In this document: positions 1-38,703 of the stretch, piece by piece
Layout: every line of letters starts with the position of its first letter
Position numbering within the stretch: position 1 is the first letter of the stretch
DNA from: a virus
Lineage: Duplodnaviria > Heunggongvirae > Uroviricota > Caudoviricetes
IMG/VR virus record: IMGVR_UViG_2724679538_000007
Coordinates: 1-38,703 of that record
Length of the DNA: 38,703 nt
Strand: one strand, 5' to 3'
Program-made: the position numbers and the translations under genes
The notes under the pieces: generated by a model
Seen by the model: the letters and a program-made list of their open reading frames with translations, nothing else
What the model was told of the DNA's origin: nothing
Database searches by the model: none

Positions 1-1071
1 TTATTTGATTTCAATTTTGTCCCACTCCCTGCCTCTGTCATCACGATACTGTGATGCCATGGTGTCCGACTTATGCCCGAGAAGATGTTGAGCAAATTTA
101 TCGCTTATCTGCTTCTCATAGAGTCTTGCAGACAAACTGCGCAACTCGTGAAAGGTAGGCGGATCCCCTTCGAAGGAAAGACCTGATGCTTTTCGTGCGC
201 GCATAAAATACCTTGATACTGTGCCGGATGAAAGCGGTTCACGACGAGTAGATGCAATTATGGTTTCTCCGCCAAGAATCTCTTTGCATTTATCAAGTGT
301 TTCCTTCATTGATATCCCGAGGGCATCAACATGCAATGCTGTTGGGATGGCAATTTTTACGCCTGTTTTGCTTTGCTCGACATAAAGATATCCATCTACG
401 ATATCAGACCACTTCATTTCGCATAAATCACCAACTCGCTGCCCGGTAACAACAGCCAGTTCCATTGCAAGTCTGAGCCAACATGGTGATGATTCTGCTG
501 CTTGATAAATTTTCAGGTATTCGTCAGCCGTAAGTCTTGATCTCCTTACCTCTGATTTTGCTGCGCGAGTGGCAGCGACCGGGTTTGTTGTTATATGGCC
601 TTCAGCTATTGCCTCTCGGAATGCATCGCTCAGTGTTGATCTGATTAACTTGGCTGACGCCGCCTTGCCCTCGTCTATGTATCCATTGAGCATTGCCGCA
701 ATTTCTTTTGTGGTGATGTTTTCAAGTGGAGCATCAGGCAGACCCCTCCTTATTGCTTTAATTTTGCTCATGTAATTTATGAGTGTCTTCTGCTTGATTC
801 CTCTGCTGGCGAGGATTTTTTCGTAGCGATCAAGCCATGAATGTAACGTAACAGAATTATCACTGTTGATTCTTGCTGTCAGAGGCTTGTGTTTGTGTCC
901 TGAAAATAACTCAATGTTGGCCTGTATAGCTTCAGTGATTGCTATCCTCCTGTCTCGGCCTAATCCAAACTCTTTACCCGTCCTTGGGTCCCTGTAGCAG
1001 TAATATCCATTGTTTCTTATATAAAGGTTAGGGGGTAAATCCCGGCGCTCATGACTTCGCCTTCTTCCCAT
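1..1071 (-). CDS. int: Tyrosine integrase, lambda Int type (356 aa)
   Basis: Translation matches phage lambda Int over its full length as I recall it (MGRRRSHERRDLPPNLYIRNNGYYCYRDPRTGKEFGLG ... HELRSLSARLYEKQ ... GHKSDTMASQYRDD). Confidence 0.97.
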   Translation of the reverse strand: MGRRRSHERRDLPPNLYIRNNGYYCYRDPRTGKEFGLGRDRRIAITEAIQANIELFSGHKHKPLTARINSDNSVTLHSWLDRYEKILASRGIKQKTLINYMSKIKAIRRGLPDAPLENITTKEIAAMLNGYIDEGKAASAKLIRSTLSDAFREAIAEGHITTNPVAATRAAKSEVRRSRLTADEYLKIYQAAESSPCWLRLAMELAVVTGQRVGDLCEMKWSDIVDGYLYVEQSKTGVKIAIPTALHVDALGISMKETLDKCKEILGGETIIASTRREPLSSGTVSRYFMRARKASGLSFEGDPPTFHELRSLSARLYEKQISDKFAQHLLGHKSDTMASQYRDDRGREWDKIEIK

Positions 1072-1267
1072 TTCTGATCCTCTTCAAAAGGCTACCTGTT
1101 ACTGGTCGATTTAAGTCAACCTTTACCGCTGATTCGTGGAACAGATACTCTCTTCCATCCTTAACCGGAGGAGGGAATATCCTGCATTCGCGCACCCATC
1201 GACGAACTGTTTCAAGGCTTCTTGGGCGTCGCTGGCGAGCGTTCCACTCCTGAAGTGTCAAGTACAT
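1049..1267 (-). CDS. xis: Excisionase (72 aa); the 102-aa track ORF carries a spurious N-terminal extension
   Basis: MYLTLQEWNARQRRPRSLETVRRWVRECRIFPPPVKDGREYLFHESAVKVDLNRP matches lambda Xis; overlaps the int start as in lambda. Confidence 0.9.
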   Translation of the reverse strand: MYLTLQEWNARQRRPRSLETVRRWVRECRIFPPPVKDGREYLFHESAVKVDLNRPVTGSLLKRIRNGKKAKS

Positions 1268-1459
1268 CGCAAAGTCTCCGCAATTACACGCAAGAAAAAG
1301 CCGCATTGATGCGGCGATGGTAGGTCTGGATATCATTGAGCAATGAACAGGCCTCATCGAGTGTGAGGCGGGTTAGTCCTTGCGTAGCTCGCTAATTCTT
1401 CTGTAAGTCTCTGGTGCTTTGCTATCTCACGCAGTGCCTGATAGTCAATCTTGCTCATG

Positions 1460-27293: not shown

Positions 27294-27760
27294 TGGAAAT
27301 AAAGCTCATCGATAATCCGGTGAAGCTTGCAGAATTCCTCAACAACCCGGCAAACACGGGGAATATCGTAGACAGTGGAGATAAATACTACATCAAGCCT
27401 GATGCGGTATATCTCGGCATCTACGAAGGATTAGTGCTGGCTGGAGTTCATGAAGTGCGTAACTTCTGGCATAGCGTTGTTGAATGCCATGCGGTGTATG
27501 ACCCCGGATTCCGTGGTGAATATGCACTGCAAGGGCATCGATTATTCTGCAAATGGCTTCTCGAAAACTCACCATTCCTTAACAGCATCACCATGGTTCC
27601 TGACACAACGAAATACGGACGGTCAATTATCCGTTTGCTTGGCGCTACCCGTGTTGGTCACCTTGATGATGCGTACATGAGTAACGGAAAACCGGTTGGA
27701 ATCACCCTCTATCAATTACCTCGTTCGAAATATGAGGAGCTATTAAATGTTAGTACTTAG
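27290..27760 (+). CDS. Virion assembly/ejection-associated protein in the P22 gene 14 position (156 aa)
   Basis: Synteny only (between the needle gene and the first ejection protein); similarity to P22 gp14 not verified. Confidence 0.6.
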
Positions 27761-33089: not shown

Positions 33090-34991
33090 ATGACAGATTC
33101 AATAAATGCCAATGTTGTAGTGAGTATGCCTTCGCAACTCTTCACTATGGCTCGTTCTTTTAAAGCCGTAGCCAATGGCAAAATTTATATCGGGAAAATT
33201 GACACTGATCCGGTAAATCCTGAAAACCGGATTCAGGTTTATGTAGAGAACGAAGACGGCTCTCACGTTCCTGTTTCTCAACCAATCATCATTAACGCTG
33301 CTGGTTATCCGGTATATAACGGACAGATTGCTAAATTCGTAACTGTGCAAGGCCATTCCATGGCTGTTTATGATGCGTATGGTGCACAGCAATTCTATTT
33401 TCCTAATGTGCTGAAGTATGACCCTGACCAGTTCAAACCTGAACTACAAGGTGCCAATGGAGCAAGCTTAATTGGTACTAATCATCGCGGCACCTTAAAG
33501 GCTGACTTAGATCGCATTGACAATAGAACGTCGGGACAGTCCATCGCAGATTTAAAGTCTAATACTGGTGATATTGTTATCGACTCCTCTGTTACGGACG
33601 CAATCACCCCAATTTCAGGCAGCGAGATATCTGGGGCGAGTAACGGGGAACATGTCACCGCTAAGGGTACTGTCGGGATTACTATAAATGATAGCAGGGT
33701 TAAGGTTGATAACTTGCTAATGCGCGGCGACGGCACTGTAGACTACACGGACACCTCACCGACATATAATGCCATTATCTATGGCTCGGACGTTGTTGTG
33801 TCCCGTTCATACGCTAAAGACACGACAATGGGGTACGACTTGGCCGCCGGTGCTTCCAACGTTAAGCTAATTGGTAATACAAGTGAAAATATGACGTCGC
33901 ACCCCGCCGTTGGTACACCACCTGTTTCAGCCGGTGGCTATGGTGTGCTTCTGGGAACTAACGAGGACGTATTAATCCTGGGCCATTCTGCTAAGGGCAC
34001 AAACCCTGCTGACCGCCACGCAGTATACCTATCAAATACGAACAACACTGACCAGAACAAAGATGTTCGGGTAATCGGCTTACGTGCGGATTACAGCGCA
34101 GGTCCATCCGCGGGGGATAAGCCGGAGCGGTCATCACCTATGATATTCGCCCGCGGCAACAACGGCGTCATTATCAGTTCTTCCCAACTCCGTGGCGGCG
34201 GAGCCGGTATAAATTTCACAGATGAGCGCGTAGGATACAGTTCAATAACCTTGAGTGATTTGCAATTACTGGATATTCGTAAGAATACCGCGGATGAGTC
34301 ATGGGGTATCGCACTCAACCACGCGTCTGCTAACGCTTCCAATGTCAACACCCAGAATATTATTAACGGCGTTAATATAGTAATGGCGCCCGGGAGCACA
34401 TCTGCCGACAGGTCGAATCAGTACCCTATACACCTTAATTCACAGCGGTATGTAAATATTGATAATGCCATCATAGCATCGTCGGGGTTGGCGTACGGAA
34501 TACGCCTGATAGCTACAAGTTACTGTAATATCAGTAATGTAGTAGGGTTTACTAACGATGGGACATCTGCCGCGGCGGCCGTGGCGTTCTTCCAGTTTCA
34601 GAACGGAAGCAGTAATATTAAATTAAGCAATATAAACGTCCAATCAAGAAATACAATGTTCGCAGGGCTGGATAATGTAACCGACTTGCAAGTGGATTGG
34701 GTGCGTAAAGTTCGCATTAACGTTGTATCTGGAGCGGCTACAGTATCAGGGGATATATGGGAACTAGTTAGCGGCGTAACCGTCACTGGGGCGAGTATAG
34801 CTGTTCAACTTAAGGGCCATGTAACACAAACCGCTGCTGATGGCGCTATCGTAAGGCCGGCTAGTGCTAATCAATTTATTGTTGCTGGCACTGACTCTAA
34901 AAGGATTACAATTTCTGTATATAACGTTAATGGCACTGGTGTTGTGCCAAACACTGGTACTTATTCGTTCGATATTGTGCTATATAAATAG
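33090..34991 (+). CDS. Tailspike protein (P22 gp9-like N-terminal head-binding domain, divergent receptor-binding domain; 633 aa)
   Basis: N-terminal about 120 aa parallel P22 tailspike (ANVVVS ... [22 protein letters not shown] ... [12 protein letters not shown] ... NVLKYDPDQ); the rest is unrelated by eye and Gly/Asn/Ser-rich, consistent with a beta-helix. Confidence 0.88.
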
Positions 34992-35015
34992 GGCATCATT
35001 GCCCTATTTATTGTT
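34991..35015. terminator. Hairpin between the convergent tailspike and gtrC-like genes
   Basis: AGGGCA-tcat-TGCCCT followed by ATTTATTGTT. Confidence 0.4.
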
Positions 35016-35050
35016 ATCCATGGATCACTTCTTGGTAAGGTGGTCTTTAA

Positions 35051-36499
35051 CTATCGACATTTGTTGAAGTCAAATATCATTGTGTCATTATGAATAAGTG
35101 TGGTGTAGATACTATTACTTCTGTATGGTTTTTTGCACGATGATGCCAATGCAGATGGTAAGTTTATCTTAGAATCATAATCTACTTTTATTCCCATGCT
35201 GTTAAAAATAAATGCCCCAAACATCCAGTCTGATCTGATATATGATGGAGTAATCATGCCAATGATTCCGATTTTTTCATTAGCGTTTTGTACTGGTTGA
35301 GGAAATGAAGTTAACCCATTAAATCTTATTTTAGTTATATTTTGGCTTGATGTTATGTCCTTAGCCATAGAATAAAATAAAAATTCCTCTTTGCTCTTCT
35401 GTGCTTGTAAGGAATTCCCATACATGTAACTAACAATAAAGCACGAGAAAATTAAAGGGATAGGTGTGAAAAACGTCCATCTATTGGCGCTTGAAGATAT
35501 AATATAAACTGAAAAAAACATGAGACCAGAAAATCCTACTAATACCCTGGGATATACAACAGGTTCATCTAGAATAAAAAGAACGCCAATAACAGATAAT
35601 AATACGCCAAATATGCATATTAATGTAGCTATTGTCGTGTTAATTGTTTTTCTTTGAAATGCATTTGTGAATGACATTGCTATTGCTATTGATAATGTTA
35701 TAGCAAATATACCCCCCAGAAATCCCGAAAGAGCCTTTAATATCATACTTGTGTAAATTTTGTAATTTTCTGATACATTAAATGCAAGACCTTTTACATT
35801 TAATGCTAATTGAGCATGGTTTGTGCTATATGCGCCAGAAACATAAATGCTAGCAATTAGTAGTTTATAAATAATAAGTGCGGCAGTTAATGCCAGTATA
35901 TATACTGAAATATTCTTAAGAAGTGTTGTTATATTATCTGTTGATTTTAAAATAATACAATTCAAACAAGTGAGAGCAATAAATATGTTTACTGATGATT
36001 GATACAGGCTTAAAGTAAAAACCAACAGAATGATCGATGTCGCGAAATTTATAAAACTTTTGTTTTTTAAAAGAAGTGCGGCGGACACAACAGATAATGA
36101 CACAGAGAGTGACATTGTAAATACGTCAAATTTGTAAGACAAATTTTGAAGATAAAAAGGTGATACAATCAAAGATAGTGAAATTAATACTACCCTAAAT
36201 TTTCCTTCGAGTTTGGTTATGAAACAATAATAATAACAAGAGGTTATCATTGTTAACATTGATAGCAAAAGAGGCATTGGTGATATGTTGATAACCTTAC
36301 CACCAAATGACATACCTTTAATTATCCATTCTGCAAGCGGTCTACCATTGTCTGCCCATCTTGCATATCCAGCAATATTTCTTGATATGTCGTCAATGTA
36401 GAAAACATTGCCAATAATCAATGGTAATGAGTATAGAATAGCAAGTGTAATGGCATAGGTATATCCATTACGTTTTAAATACATTATAAATGAGTTCAT
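35051..36499 (-). CDS. Serotype-specific O-antigen glucosyltransferase, GtrC-type polytopic membrane protein (482 aa)
   Basis: Third gene of a gtrA-gtrB-X operon; many predicted TM helices; strongly AT-rich relative to the rest of the prophage; GtrC-type proteins are typically this divergent. Confidence 0.7.
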
Positions 36500-37416
36500 T
36501 GTGTTTTACCTTTTATTATATAACGAGGTCTCATCTTTGTTTCTGTGTAAATTCTTCCAATGTATTCACCTAGCACACCAATACCTATCAATTGGACGCC
36601 GCCAAGGAACAGAATAGACACGAGCAATGAAGGATAACCACGAACAGGGTTTCCAAACACCAGTGTGTCAAGAATCATCAACGCACCGTAAATAAATGCC
36701 ATACTGGCAACAAAAAGCCCGATATAAGTCCACATGCGTAGTGGGAATGTTGAGAAACTTGTTATTCCCTCAAGGGCTAAATTCCACAACTTCCATCCGT
36801 TAAATTTCGTGCTCCCTGCTACACGTTCGGCGCGAACATATTCTACAACATCAGTCTTTCCGCCAACCCAACTCAGTATACCCTTCATGAATAGGTTGCG
36901 TTCTTGCATGAGCTTAATATTTTCTACAACTTCACGGCTCATTAACCGGAAATCACCAACATTTTCCTCAATCTTTGGATTACTTATTTTGTTGTGTAGC
37001 TTATAGAACCACTCAGCAGTTTTGCGCTTCAGACGACCATCAGTAGATCGATCTGATCGTTTGGCAAGAACCATATCAGCGCCTGCCTGCCACTTTTCTA
37101 TAAGATGAGGAATAACCTCAATCGGGTCTTGCAGGTCAACATCAATTGGAATCACGGCATCGCCAGTTGCATGGTCTAACCCTGCAAACAATGCTGGTTC
37201 TTTACCAAAGTTGCGTGTAAATGACAGCGGAACAACTAGCGGATCAGAAACAGCCAGAGCGTTAATGATTGACTCCGTAGCGTCTTTGCTTCCGTCATTT
37301 ATGAAAACAATTTCTACTTCATATGACTTCAACTCTTCGAATTCACGTACCGTTTTATAGAAAATTGGTATCGCTTCTTCTTCATTGAAGACAGGAACGA
37401 CCAGAGATATCTTCAT
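36496..37416 (-). CDS. gtrB: Bactoprenol glucosyltransferase GtrB (GT2 family, 306 aa)
   Basis: [19 protein letters not shown] ... INDGSKD ... two C-terminal TM helices; typical GtrB organisation. Confidence 0.92.
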
Positions 37417-37775
37417 TTCGCATCCCTAAAGACAATGAACTTTGAATAGACGAAACCGCACACCAGGCTGATGGCGGAGAAAGTGATAAGGGTGACCATC
37501 GGGGGAAGTGCGCATCTATCAGCAGCCCACCCGACGACAACACTCAAGGTTCCCATGAATCCCACGTATAACAAGTAACGCATCGTTGTAGTCGATGCTT
37601 TGAATGTGAATCTTGCATTCGCGAAGAAGCTAAAGCTCACAGCTACTATGAAACCTGCGAAGTTTGCCATAGCTTGATTTGTATGCGCTGCATAGATACA
37701 TACACCAAAAACCACCCAGTGTATAAGTGTGTTCAGCACACCAATTGAGGTGTACTTTGCAAATAGCTTTAACAT
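37413..37775 (-). CDS. gtrA: GtrA-type flippase (small four-TM protein, 120 aa)
   Basis: Size, hydrophobicity and position as the first gene of the gtr operon, overlapping the gtrB start. Confidence 0.88.
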
Positions 37776-37929
37776 TTATTTAATCAATGAGTTCTGAAGG
37801 GCATGAAGTCTATCATCCAAGTCTCAATCGATCGATACTTGGTGTGGTTGATGGGGCAAAACTGAGACACAAAAAGCTTTGCACTGAATTGCAAGGCTTA
37901 GTGCATTCTCTGGAGTGCGATATGTTCTG

Positions 37930-37975
37930 ATGACAAAAAATTAGCGCAAGAAGACAAAAAATCACCTTGCGCTAA
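37930..37975 (-). terminator. Perfect 10-bp inverted repeat plus U-tract between host ybhB and the gtr operon (minus strand)
   Basis: Plus strand TTAGCGCAAG-aagacaaaaaatcac-CTTGCGCTAA; on the minus strand the hairpin is followed by ATTTTTTGT. Confidence 0.5.
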
Positions 37976-37977
37976 TG

Positions 37978-38136
37978 CTCTGTCTCAGGTCACTAATACT
38001 ATCTAAGTAGTTGATTCATAGTGACTGCACATGCTGTGTTTTGCAGTATTATGTAGTCTATTATTTAGACAAAAATCTTCATAACGCATTGATATTAATG
38101 TTTTTTACTGTTTCTTGTTCAGCTTTTTTATACTAA
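37978..38136 (+). other. attR: lambda-type P arm with Int arm-type sites, ending in the 15-bp core GCTTTTTTATACTAA (38122-38136)
   Basis: caggtcactaatactatctaagtagttgattcatagtgactgca...cagcttttttatactaacttgagcgaaacggg parallels the lambda attP P arm and the core/attB B' junction as I recall them. Confidence 0.8.
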
Positions 38137-38226
38137 CTTGAGCGAAACGGGAAGGTAAAAAGACAAAAAGTTGTTTTTAATACCTTTAAGTGATACCAGA
38201 TGGCATTGCGCCATCTGGTTGAGCAA

Positions 38227-38703
38227 TTAACTAAACATCGCAGTAATCGAGGCGCTTGCCAGAGAGTGGAAATGGACGTTAAACCCGACCATCGCGCCAC
38301 TGGCACCTTCATCGACATCAATACGTTCTACATCCAGCGCGTGAACGGTAAAAATGTAGCGATGAGTTTCGCCCTTCGGCGGCGCTGCGCCATCGTACCC
38401 AGTTTTACCAAAGTCAGTTCGCGTCTGCAAAACGCCGTCTGGCATTGCTACCAGACCAGAGCCAAACCCTTGCGGTAATACGCGGGTATCAGCGGGTAAG
38501 TTAACAACTACCCAGTGCCACCAGCCAGAGCCAGTTGGCGCATCCGGGTCGTAGCAGGTGACGACAAAACTTTTGGTTCCCGCAGGAACATCATCCCATG
38601 CCAGATGCGGCGAAATATTATCGCCATCGTAACCCATGCCGTTAAAGACATGGCGATGCGGCAGCTTATCGCCATCGCGCAGATCATTACTAATGAGTTT
38701 CAT
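38227..38703 (-). CDS. ybhB: Host PEBP-family protein YbhB (158 aa), adjacent to lambda attB
   Basis: MKLISNDLRDGDKLPHRHVFNGMGYDGDNISPHLAWDDVPAGTKSFVVTCYDPDAP matches E. coli YbhB as I recall it; its start codon is at the window edge. Confidence 0.9.
   Translation of the reverse strand: MKLISNDLRDGDKLPHRHVFNGMGYDGDNISPHLAWDDVPAGTKSFVVTCYDPDAPTGSGWWHWVVVNLPADTRVLPQGFGSGLVAMPDGVLQTRTDFGKTGYDGAAPPKGETHRYIFTVHALDVERIDVDEGASGAMVGFNVHFHSLASASITAMFS

Follow-up and report, generated by a model that had tools for sequence, protein, structure and literature searches.

In temperate phages with a gtrABC operon for O-antigen glucosylation, the three genes always adjoin attP-int-xis, according to a published rule (PMC3636060). 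The conversion region of phage P22 is ordered attP - Pgtr - gtrA - gtrB - gtrC - t gtr - gene 9, and its promoter has the site GATC4 at -33, with the transcription start 33 bp downstream (PMC2909390). The Dam/OxyR phase-variable gtr operons of the P22 / Salmonella type have a signature ahead of the promoter, namely four GATC sites that lie as two pairs in a set of three OxyR half-sites (PMC2909390, PMC3688519). Phage lambda has another element beside attP, tI/sib, and the sib retroregulation of int is described in PMC5300877.

Position and gene content of the region

The stretch of DNA that was analysed, the window, is 38,703 nucleotides long. It is very likely that the region described here is the right end of a P22-like Escherichia fergusonii prophage at the lambda attachment site beside ybhB, and that it holds two separate modules which are both known, gtrABC and tI/sib. 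Its sequence and gene content, the positions of its elements and their predicted folds were compared with the described systems, which gave the following features.

1-1315, minus strand: lambda-type int (1-1071) and xis, at the opposite prophage end; Int has 99% amino acid identity to that of lambda
34984-35011, no strand: perfect 12-bp stem with a 4-nt loop, ATAAATAGGGCA-TCAT-TGCCCTATTTAT, folding at -18.1 and -16.7 kcal/mol on the two strands
35051-36499, minus strand: gtrC, 482 aa, type-specific polytopic glucosyltransferase, 31.4% GC, a rare allele
36496-37416, minus strand: gtrB, 306 aa, GT2 bactoprenol (undecaprenyl-phosphate) glucosyltransferase, 93% identity to SfII GtrB
37413-37775, minus strand: gtrA, small membrane protein of 120 aa, proposed Und-P-glucose flippase, 89% identity to SfII GtrA
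37807-37835, minus strand: candidate gtr core promoter, -35 TCGATC, 17-nt spacer, -10 TG-n-TAGACT
37869-37904, minus strand: second conserved hairpin (14 consensus pairs), annotated in SfII as a putative rho-independent terminator
37927-37988, minus strand: extended stem from the predicted fold, in read-through RNA only, predicted equivalent of the sib RNase III site
37935-37976, minus strand: tI/sib hairpin with U-tract, homologue of lambda 27538-27577
37977-38136, plus strand: lambda-type attR, P arm and 15-bp core GCTTTTTTATACTAA (38122-38136), with host B' sequence next
38195-38219, minus strand: host-side perfect 10-bp hairpin, 8 nt past the ybhB stop codon, without a U-tract
38227-38703, minus strand: ybhB (host)

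The lambda att core occurs once in the window, with none expected, and the host B' sequence starts at 38137. At this prophage end, window 37868-38140 has 87.6% identity to lambda 27473-27742. At the other end, 353 of the 356 Int residues are the same as in lambda Int, and over 1315 bp the DNA of int-xis has 97.9% identity to lambda. The integration module is that of lambda, whereas P22 has one of the thrW type. The gtr-carrying prophages at lambda attB of E. coli, for example in strain 042, have the same arrangement as here, gtrC-gtrB-gtrA - hairpins - attR - ybhB - bioA, and out of 5,426 complete E. coli genomes, 98 contain the junction of gtrA and tI, which is 92-94% identical to that of the window; strain 042 is one of them, with the junction beside ybhB. 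Unlike the prophage studied here, the E. coli prophages that we inspected have late genes with tail fibres (long-tailed) and other types of gtrC, such as a DUF6056 protein, and at the megablast level none of them had the gtrC of the window.

The hairpin between ybhB and gtrA

A perfect-stem hairpin with a U-tract had been proposed between ybhB and gtrA in the initial annotation, and it is indeed there, with a stem of 11 bp, on the minus strand at 37935-37976. The arms ATTAGCGCAAG (37940-37950) and CTTGCGCTAAT (37966-37976) pair perfectly around a 15-nt loop, and on the minus strand the hairpin is directly followed by TTTTTTGT (six U). The stem of 11-12 bp, the core fold of -19.8 kcal/mol and the UUUUUUGU that follows are those of an intrinsic terminator, with a loop that is atypically long. 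It was only because loops were limited to 8 nt that a simple terminator scan missed it. If inverted repeats are required to be perfect, 10 bp or longer and closed by a 3-20 nt loop, the window has only three such loci, with 6 overlapping matches compared to a mean of 0.7 in shuffled sequences.

The hairpin is phage DNA and is found on the P-arm side of the lambda att core, 146 bp inward from it. Its arms are identical to lambda 27544-27553 and 27568-27577, the hairpin is identical to one annotated as terminator tI in the lambda derivative O276, and the homologous place in phage 434 is also annotated as a terminator. In 13 other loci the flanks vary, but the stem and the U-tract are always the same. 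The strand is that of int and the distance from the att core falls within the roughly 150-190 bp of tI/sib. Its position on the phage side, its identity to tI, the 13 invariant loci and the 99% lambda Int at the other prophage end together lead us to conclude that the hairpin is the tI/sib retroregulator of int. A search of 34900-38703 against Rfam, which lacks a tI/sib family, gave only a chance snoRNA match (E = 0.49) at a permissive threshold.

A closer comparison with lambda tI/sib shows that the 11-bp stem, the U-tract, the strand and the distance to the att core are identical, that in both of them the outer stem coincides in part with the Int arm site P1, and that the cognate int-xis is 98% identical. 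The differences are small. The loop is 14 nt in lambda and 15 nt in the window (one A more), and the outer stem reads CUGUAAC in lambda but CUGAGAC in the window, which predicts a slightly longer extended helix in the latter. Furthermore, the next gene downstream of the hairpin is gtrA, as compared to the b-region genes of lambda, and for this reason the tI/sib of the window precedes a conversion operon in the prophage.

The 131-nt region around the hairpin folds at -44.9 kcal/mol (z = -5.7 against shuffles), and the 5' half of the extended stem overlaps P1, where the lambda site 'int 1' (27583-27602) corresponds to window 37981-38000. The outer part of this stem varies among the 13 loci without clean compensatory changes or convincing covariation, and it is therefore from the invariant inner part that we infer a conserved RNase III substrate. 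In the circular phage, tI/sib sits downstream of int, across attP, and would terminate the int transcripts from pI. In antiterminated read-through RNA from pL, the hairpin would extend into the longer stem and be cut by RNase III, and the int message would be destroyed by this retroregulation. Integration shifts tI/sib to the opposite prophage end, pointing from ybhB towards gtrA, where it could stop host read-through, but only incidentally.

It had been claimed that the hairpin is an insulator between host and prophage, shielding the gtr operon from transcription that enters from ybhB. The map of the prophage seems to fit this, with the hairpin on the ybhB-sense strand between ybhB and gtrA and with two terminator-like hairpins in series ahead of the gtr promoter. 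Read-through from ybhB is also conceivable, since its own downstream hairpin has no U-tract. However, the identical hairpin is present at an equal distance from attP in phages lambda, 434, HK106, phi80 and JEP4, whose annotated flanks, where examined, hold no gtr gene, and it is annotated as tI. The hairpin goes with the int/att module and not with gtr, SfII and P22 having the same gtr arrangement without it, and in the circular phage it faces transcription from int and not from a host gene. We find it unlikely that insulation is what the hairpin is for. Blocking of ybhB read-through in the prophage is physically plausible, but as a mere side effect at the most, one that would be common to every lambda lysogen, and it is not the element's function. 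There is hardly any chance that the hairpin is the host's own ybhB terminator. It does follow ybhB on the same strand, at a distance of about 250 bp, but the att core lies between the two and the hairpin is 146 bp past it, on the side of the phage P arm, with host B' sequence only from 38137; the stretch is also homologous to free phage genomes. One E. coli strain even has the same gtrA-hairpin junction beside torT instead of ybhB. With the hairpin taken as tI/sib, there is a trap here for annotation, in that a hairpin at a prophage end which looks like an insulator of the cargo genes against the host can belong to the integration module and owe its place to the integration event.

The gtr operon and its third gene

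The gtr module is a canonical and ordinary three-gene operon for O-antigen glucosylation, with a rare third gene. The genes gtrA, gtrB and gtrC are co-directional, lie head to tail with overlaps of 4 bp, and are found directly beside the attP/int-xis side of a temperate phage, as also in the Sf phages (PMC3636060). The Pfam families are Glycos_transf_2 (PF00535) for GtrB, GtrA_DPMS_TM (PF04138) for GtrA and Glucos_trans_II for GtrC (118 bits, cut-off 30); NCBIfam has no model for GtrC or GtrA.

In nucleotides, gtrAB has about 85% identity to SfI, SfII, SfIV, SfV and HF4s, and in the four Sf phages this level of DNA identity continues for about 90-125 bp upstream of gtrA. The homology to the Shigella Sf phages ends 25-50 bp inside the 3' end of gtrB, and the SfII GtrC, with 24% identity over only 162 aa, is essentially unrelated to that of the window. 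SfI, SfII, SfIV and SfV furthermore differ in having long-tailed virions and att at thrW, compared to the P22-like virion and the lambda attB here. P22 has the same gene order and the same orientation relative to tailspike and att, and in both there is a terminator hairpin between gtrC and the tailspike gene and a second hairpin between att and the promoter. This second hairpin is common to lambda, 434, P22, SfII and E. coli prophages, and the copy in the window is the weakest. The GtrC of P22 has only 27% identity to the one in the window.

By a P22-type core promoter we mean a -35 hexamer with GATC4, a 17-nt spacer, a -10 hexamer and a start about 25 nt ahead of gtrA. The candidate in the window has TCGATC-17-TAGACT and the mapped promoter of P22 has TCGATC-17-TACACT, with 31 nt from the -10 to the gtrA ATG in both. 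The two promoters thus differ by a single base of the -10 and agree in the -35 hexamer, in spacer length and in the distance to the ATG. The candidate scores 7 of 12 against the consensus, and a scan for consensus promoters and terminators found no strong sigma-70 promoter and no gtr promoter; the proposal rests on positional homology with P22. From this we infer that gtrABC would be driven by a core promoter of its own, 31 nt ahead of gtrA. The only GATC in 37400-38300 is at 37830, inside the -35 TCGATC, and the upstream OxyR half-sites and GATC1-3 of P22 are missing. Phase variation of the Salmonella Dam/OxyR type was rejected on this single GATC instead of four, and expression that is uniform and not phase-variable is therefore to be expected. 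The hairpin at 34984-35011 includes part of the stop codon of the tailspike gene and is 40 bp away from that of gtrC. It resembles a bidirectional terminator and has the position of the annotated 't gtr' of P22, between gtrC and gene 9. The operon would end here, at a hairpin common to the convergent tailspike gene.

Most of what the initial annotation said about the three genes agrees with our results: gtrA and gtrB are conserved (89% and 93% amino acid identity to SfII), and the third gene, predicted to be AT-rich, polytopic and of GtrC type, has the lowest GC of any gene-sized stretch in the window, the Glucos_trans_II match and at least seven strongly hydrophobic segments. The GC content is 31.4% in gtrC (GC3 26%), 41.9% in gtrB and 45.2% in gtrA, compared to 47.6% in the rest of the prophage and 52.6% in ybhB. 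The 1449-bp window of lowest GC in the 38.7 kb begins exactly at 35051, and the lowest elsewhere is 41.1%. Horizontal shuffling of gtrC, also claimed, agrees with the end of the Sf-phage homology within gtrB and with an identical gtrC in the diverged prophage of another sample, where gtrC and its 59-bp 3' spacer are 100% identical in nucleotides, while gtrB is 92.6% and the tailspike gene 75.3% identical. The exchange is seen directly in these sequences, and gtrC is a rare, AT-rich cassette that moves among prophages independently of gtrAB and the tailspike gene.

Outside its own cluster of 18 members in three Escherichia species, GtrC is at most 48% identical to anything, and to characterised relatives and phage GtrCs at most 28%. 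The paper on gtrIC (PMC4924310) has no link to E. fergusonii or ybhB. A search of PDB sequences with GtrC gave no match at E up to 1. The AlphaFold2 model of GtrC has a mean pLDDT of 87.9, and its best matches among solved structures are STT3, EmbB, ALG3, AglB and ArnT, all of them GT-C, with probabilities of 0.96-0.99 but weak E-values (0.02-0.1) and TM-scores of 0.3-0.43. GtrC is a polytopic protein and a rare allele, and as modelled it is an enzyme of the GT-C type.

It is conceivable, though very unlikely, that gtrC is a decaying or non-functional remnant which is AT-rich from relaxed selection and leaves the lysogen unconverted. No characterised relative exceeds 28% identity, NCBIfam lacks a model, and some Salmonella GtrC families gave no LPS shift (Davies et al., PMC3688519). 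On the other hand, where the initial annotation had allowed for a pseudogene, we find an intact and uninterrupted ORF of 482 codons, which in a comparison with 16 relatives aligns over its full length, end to end, with proteins of 477-488 aa. The residues D36, D37 and R40, invariant among the relatives, are kept, and the confidence of the model is good along its whole length, every residue having a pLDDT of at least 50. Identical gtrC nucleotides retained in a diverged prophage background, and a cluster of 18 members in three species, also speak against decay.

Predicted O-antigen conversion and the tailspike

By family function, GtrB would make undecaprenyl-phosphate-glucose at the cytoplasmic face, GtrA would carry it across the membrane, and GtrC would then move the glucose onto one position of the O-antigen repeat. 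By analogy with the family, it is reasonable to expect an altered O-antigen in the lysogen and an effect on the receptor of the tailspike. In a set of 50,697 phage records, no relative of the receptor-binding part of the 633-aa tailspike exceeds 31% identity. It is possible, although we hold it only as a tentative idea, that this tailspike and the rare GtrC are a matched pair, defining a kind of O-antigen glucosylation in E. fergusonii and E. marmotae which is so far undescribed and prevents the phage's own tailspike from adsorbing. As gtrC is exchanged as one discrete unit, from the junction with gtrB to the bidirectional terminator, a swap of its specificity could also take place independently of the receptor-binding protein.

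The current understanding of gtr operons and of lambda retroregulation is left unchanged by these results. The prophage does provide a clean natural instance of gtrC cassette exchange. For surveillance, it draws attention to a GtrC allele that is as yet uncharacterised, occurs in E. fergusonii, in E. marmotae and in a few E. coli, and may alter O-serotype and phage susceptibility.

The gtr operon and its AT-rich third gene

The window is a P22-like prophage, nearest among sequenced phages to HZ41, APC_JM3.2, and IME10, which are P22-like phages of E. coli. At its left end is the stop codon of the integrase gene, whose product shares 353/356 residues with lambda Int, and its right end is inside host ybhB (38227-38703, minus; Pfam PBP). 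The Escherichia fergusonii assembly GCA_000968885.2 (contig JZWP02000001.1) matches the window at 100% over 9,653 bp. The three gtr genes, each overlapping its neighbour by 4 bp, come after the tailspike gene in the window:

33090-34991, plus: tailspike gene, 633 aa, with a P22 head-binding domain
34984-35011: 12-bp perfect stem, 4-nt loop, where the tailspike gene and gtrC converge
35051-36499, minus: gtrC, 482 aa; Pfam Glucos_trans_II, 118 bits
36496-37416, minus: gtrB, GT2
37413-37775, minus: gtrA, GtrA_DPMS_TM
38195-38219: 10-bp perfect stem with a 5-nt loop, ACCAGATGGC / GCCATCTGGT, -18.3 kcal/mol

The initial annotation described a gtrABC operon with a markedly AT-rich, shuffled third gene, and this reading is correct. 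By family, the operon is predicted to glucosylate the O-antigen, which may alter the receptor of the tailspike. In addition to the Pfam assignments, identity to the Shigella flexneri serotype-converting phage SfII is 89% for GtrA and 93% for GtrB, whereas GtrC matches its SfII counterpart GtrII at just 24% over 162 residues. The gtrAB genes and up to ~125 bp upstream of gtrA are ~85% identical to SfI, SfII, SfIV, SfV, and HF4s, a homology that ends within gtrB, 25-50 bp before the 3' end of the gene. The AT-richness of gtrC is not marginal, 31.4% GC (GC3 26%) as compared to 41.9% for gtrB, 45.2% for gtrA, 47.6% for the remaining prophage, and 52.6% for ybhB. Of all windows of 1449 bp across the 38.7 kb, the one lowest in GC starts exactly at 35051; elsewhere the lowest value is 41.1%.

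The gtrC gene is intact, since the protein aligns along its full length with relatives of 477-488 aa, has the invariant residues D36, D37, R40, G52, R53, Y166, and Q167, and gives a confident AlphaFold2 model (mean pLDDT 87.9, pTM 0.88). The best solved-structure matches of the model in Foldseek were STT3, EmbA/B, ALG3, AglB, and ArnT, all GT-C glycosyltransferases using polyprenyl-phosphate sugars, with probability 0.96-0.99 but weak by other scores (E-values 0.02-0.1, TM-scores 0.3-0.43). Cassette shuffling of gtrC is directly documented by L007, a contig from a different sample. There, gtrC with its 59-bp 3' spacer is 100% identical in nucleotides to the window, against 92.6% for gtrB and 75.3% for the tailspike gene. 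The cassette that moves includes the hairpin at 34984-35011 along with gtrC and the spacer (100% identical in L007).

The hairpin between ybhB and gtrA

A search of the whole window for perfect inverted repeats (stem 10 bp or longer, loop 3-20 nt) found three loci only; shuffles gave a mean of 0.7 hits. The stem at 34984-35011 overlaps the tailspike stop codon, is 40 bp from the gtrC stop codon, and is placed as the annotated "t gtr" of P22; it resembles a bidirectional terminator that would serve both converging operons, late and gtr. The stem at 38195-38219 belongs to the host side of attR, 8 nt past the stop codon of ybhB; it has no U-tract and is found in E. coli too. At the third locus, the perfectly paired arms are ATTAGCGCAAG (37940-37950) and CTTGCGCTAAT (37966-37976), separated by a loop of 15 nt, and TTTTTTGT comes next on the minus strand.

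The initial annotation took this third hairpin to be an insulator between the host and gtrA. It is oriented from ybhB towards gtrA in the prophage, so it could stop host read-through, which is physically reasonable. Such blocking would be common to every lambda lysogen and unrelated to gtr, and P22 and SfII have an equal gtr layout but no such hairpin. The arms have exact counterparts in lambda at 27544-27553 and 27568-27577, exactly this place is annotated "Transcription terminator tI" in the lambda derivative O276, and in phage 434 it is also annotated as a terminator. The stem and U-tract do not vary across 13 further loci (from lambda, 434, HK106, phi80, JEP4, PhiR11, and E. coli prophages), but the loop and flanks do. 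Judged by sequence and position, the hairpin is the tI/sib element of lambda, part of the integration module.

The surroundings are those of a lambda integration site. A single copy of the 15-bp lambda att core, GCTTTTTTATACTAA, is present in the window, at 38122-38136 (expected 0). To its right is host B' DNA, the same sequence as in E. coli strains, and to its left 37868-38136 is ~88% identical to lambda 27473-27738, the end of the b region and the P arm of attP. Positions 1-1315, at the prophage end opposite the hairpin, are 97.9% identical to lambda int-xis. A 131-nt minus-strand RNA is predicted to fold into the terminator stem and 11 more pairs (-44.9 kcal/mol, z = -5.7). The 5' half of this extension overlaps Int arm site P1 as in lambda, where the annotated site, 27583-27602, corresponds to 37981-38000 here.

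In circular lambda phage, int transcripts from pI end at tI and are stable, while antiterminated pL transcripts pass tI and form a longer duplex that is cut by RNase III, and the int message is degraded from its 3' end. On integration at attP, sib is parted from int and ends up at the far end of the prophage, just where the hairpin is in the window. The element here would likewise terminate pI-started int transcripts in the circular phage, and pL read-through RNA would become an RNase III substrate. Retroregulation of int by sib goes back to Schindler and Echols (1981), as cited by PMC5300877.

A candidate gtr promoter and a second hairpin

A consensus promoter scan found none for gtr. On the minus strand, TCGATC (37835-37830) is followed by 17 nt, TG-a-TAGACT (hexamer 37812-37807), and 31 nt to the gtrA ATG. 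P22 has TCGATC-17 nt-TACACT, again with 31 nt between the -10 and the ATG, and we take TCGATC-17-TAGACT to be a candidate homologue of the P22 gtr core promoter. The latter was mapped experimentally (PMC2909390): GATC4 is at -33, and transcription starts 33 bp downstream. The Salmonella phase-variation signature is four GATC sites within OxyR half-sites (PMC2909390, PMC3688519). The gtr upstream region here has a single GATC, and Broadbent et al. found constitutive activity of the P22 core promoter when GATC4 is its only GATC site, so uniform expression of the operon is predicted, as proposed for Shigella gtr operons (PMC3688519). A 26-bp near-palindrome at 37817-37842, CCAAGTCTCAATC / GATCGATACTTGG (11/13), is centred on the sole GATC, overlaps the -35 of the candidate promoter, and is conserved in SfII and an E. 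coli prophage; it could be a regulator binding site.

Between tI and the candidate promoter, downstream of attP in the int-sense direction, is a second hairpin (37869-37904, minus, ~36 nt), annotated in SfII as a putative terminator. It has 14 consensus pairs, two with compensatory changes, and is present in lambda, 434, P22, SfII, and E. coli prophages; compared loci that have it include L001 (1483-1540), L018 (453-510), and L003 (3803-3860). It is kept across three integration modules, those of lambda/434, P22/SfII (thrW), and a torT-site prophage. Its position coincides exactly with the overlap of the lambda-type and Sf-type homologies, so it might have a further role as a linker for recombination between modules. 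In E. coli 2017.17.01CC (L004 5282-5711, compared to 37868-37905) 21 nt of it are absent, apparently by deletion between the short direct repeats GCTTTG and GCTTAG, which makes the second hairpin dispensable in at least one prophage.

Distribution of the arrangement

PMC3636060 describes gtrABC as always adjoining attP-int-xis in glucosylating phages, and of 5,426 complete E. coli genomes, 98 have the gtrA-tI junction (92-94% identity), so the combination of gtrABC and tI is neither new nor rare. The gtrA gene adjoins ybhB in strains 042, 2017.17.01CC, and C41, and torT in SCU-485. The stretch beside torT (NZ_CP053245.1, 3687887-3688834) has the same junction, from gtrA through its upstream region to tI, which implies that the tI-like hairpin and the gtr module also occur with another attachment specificity.

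No megablast-level match to gtrC was found in any of the 5,426 genomes. The GtrC cluster has 18 members, all nearly identical, which come from E. fergusonii, E. marmotae, and a few E. coli; the nearest relative outside it is 48% identical, and phage GtrCs are at most 28%. The N-terminal head-binding domain of the tailspike is ~81% identical to those of HK620 and Sf101. Its receptor-binding part has only 27-31% matches, none above 31% among 50,697 phage records, and a tailspike 82% identical in protein occurs alongside an identical gtrC in another sample. What is uncommon in this prophage is only the gtrC allele and the tailspike.
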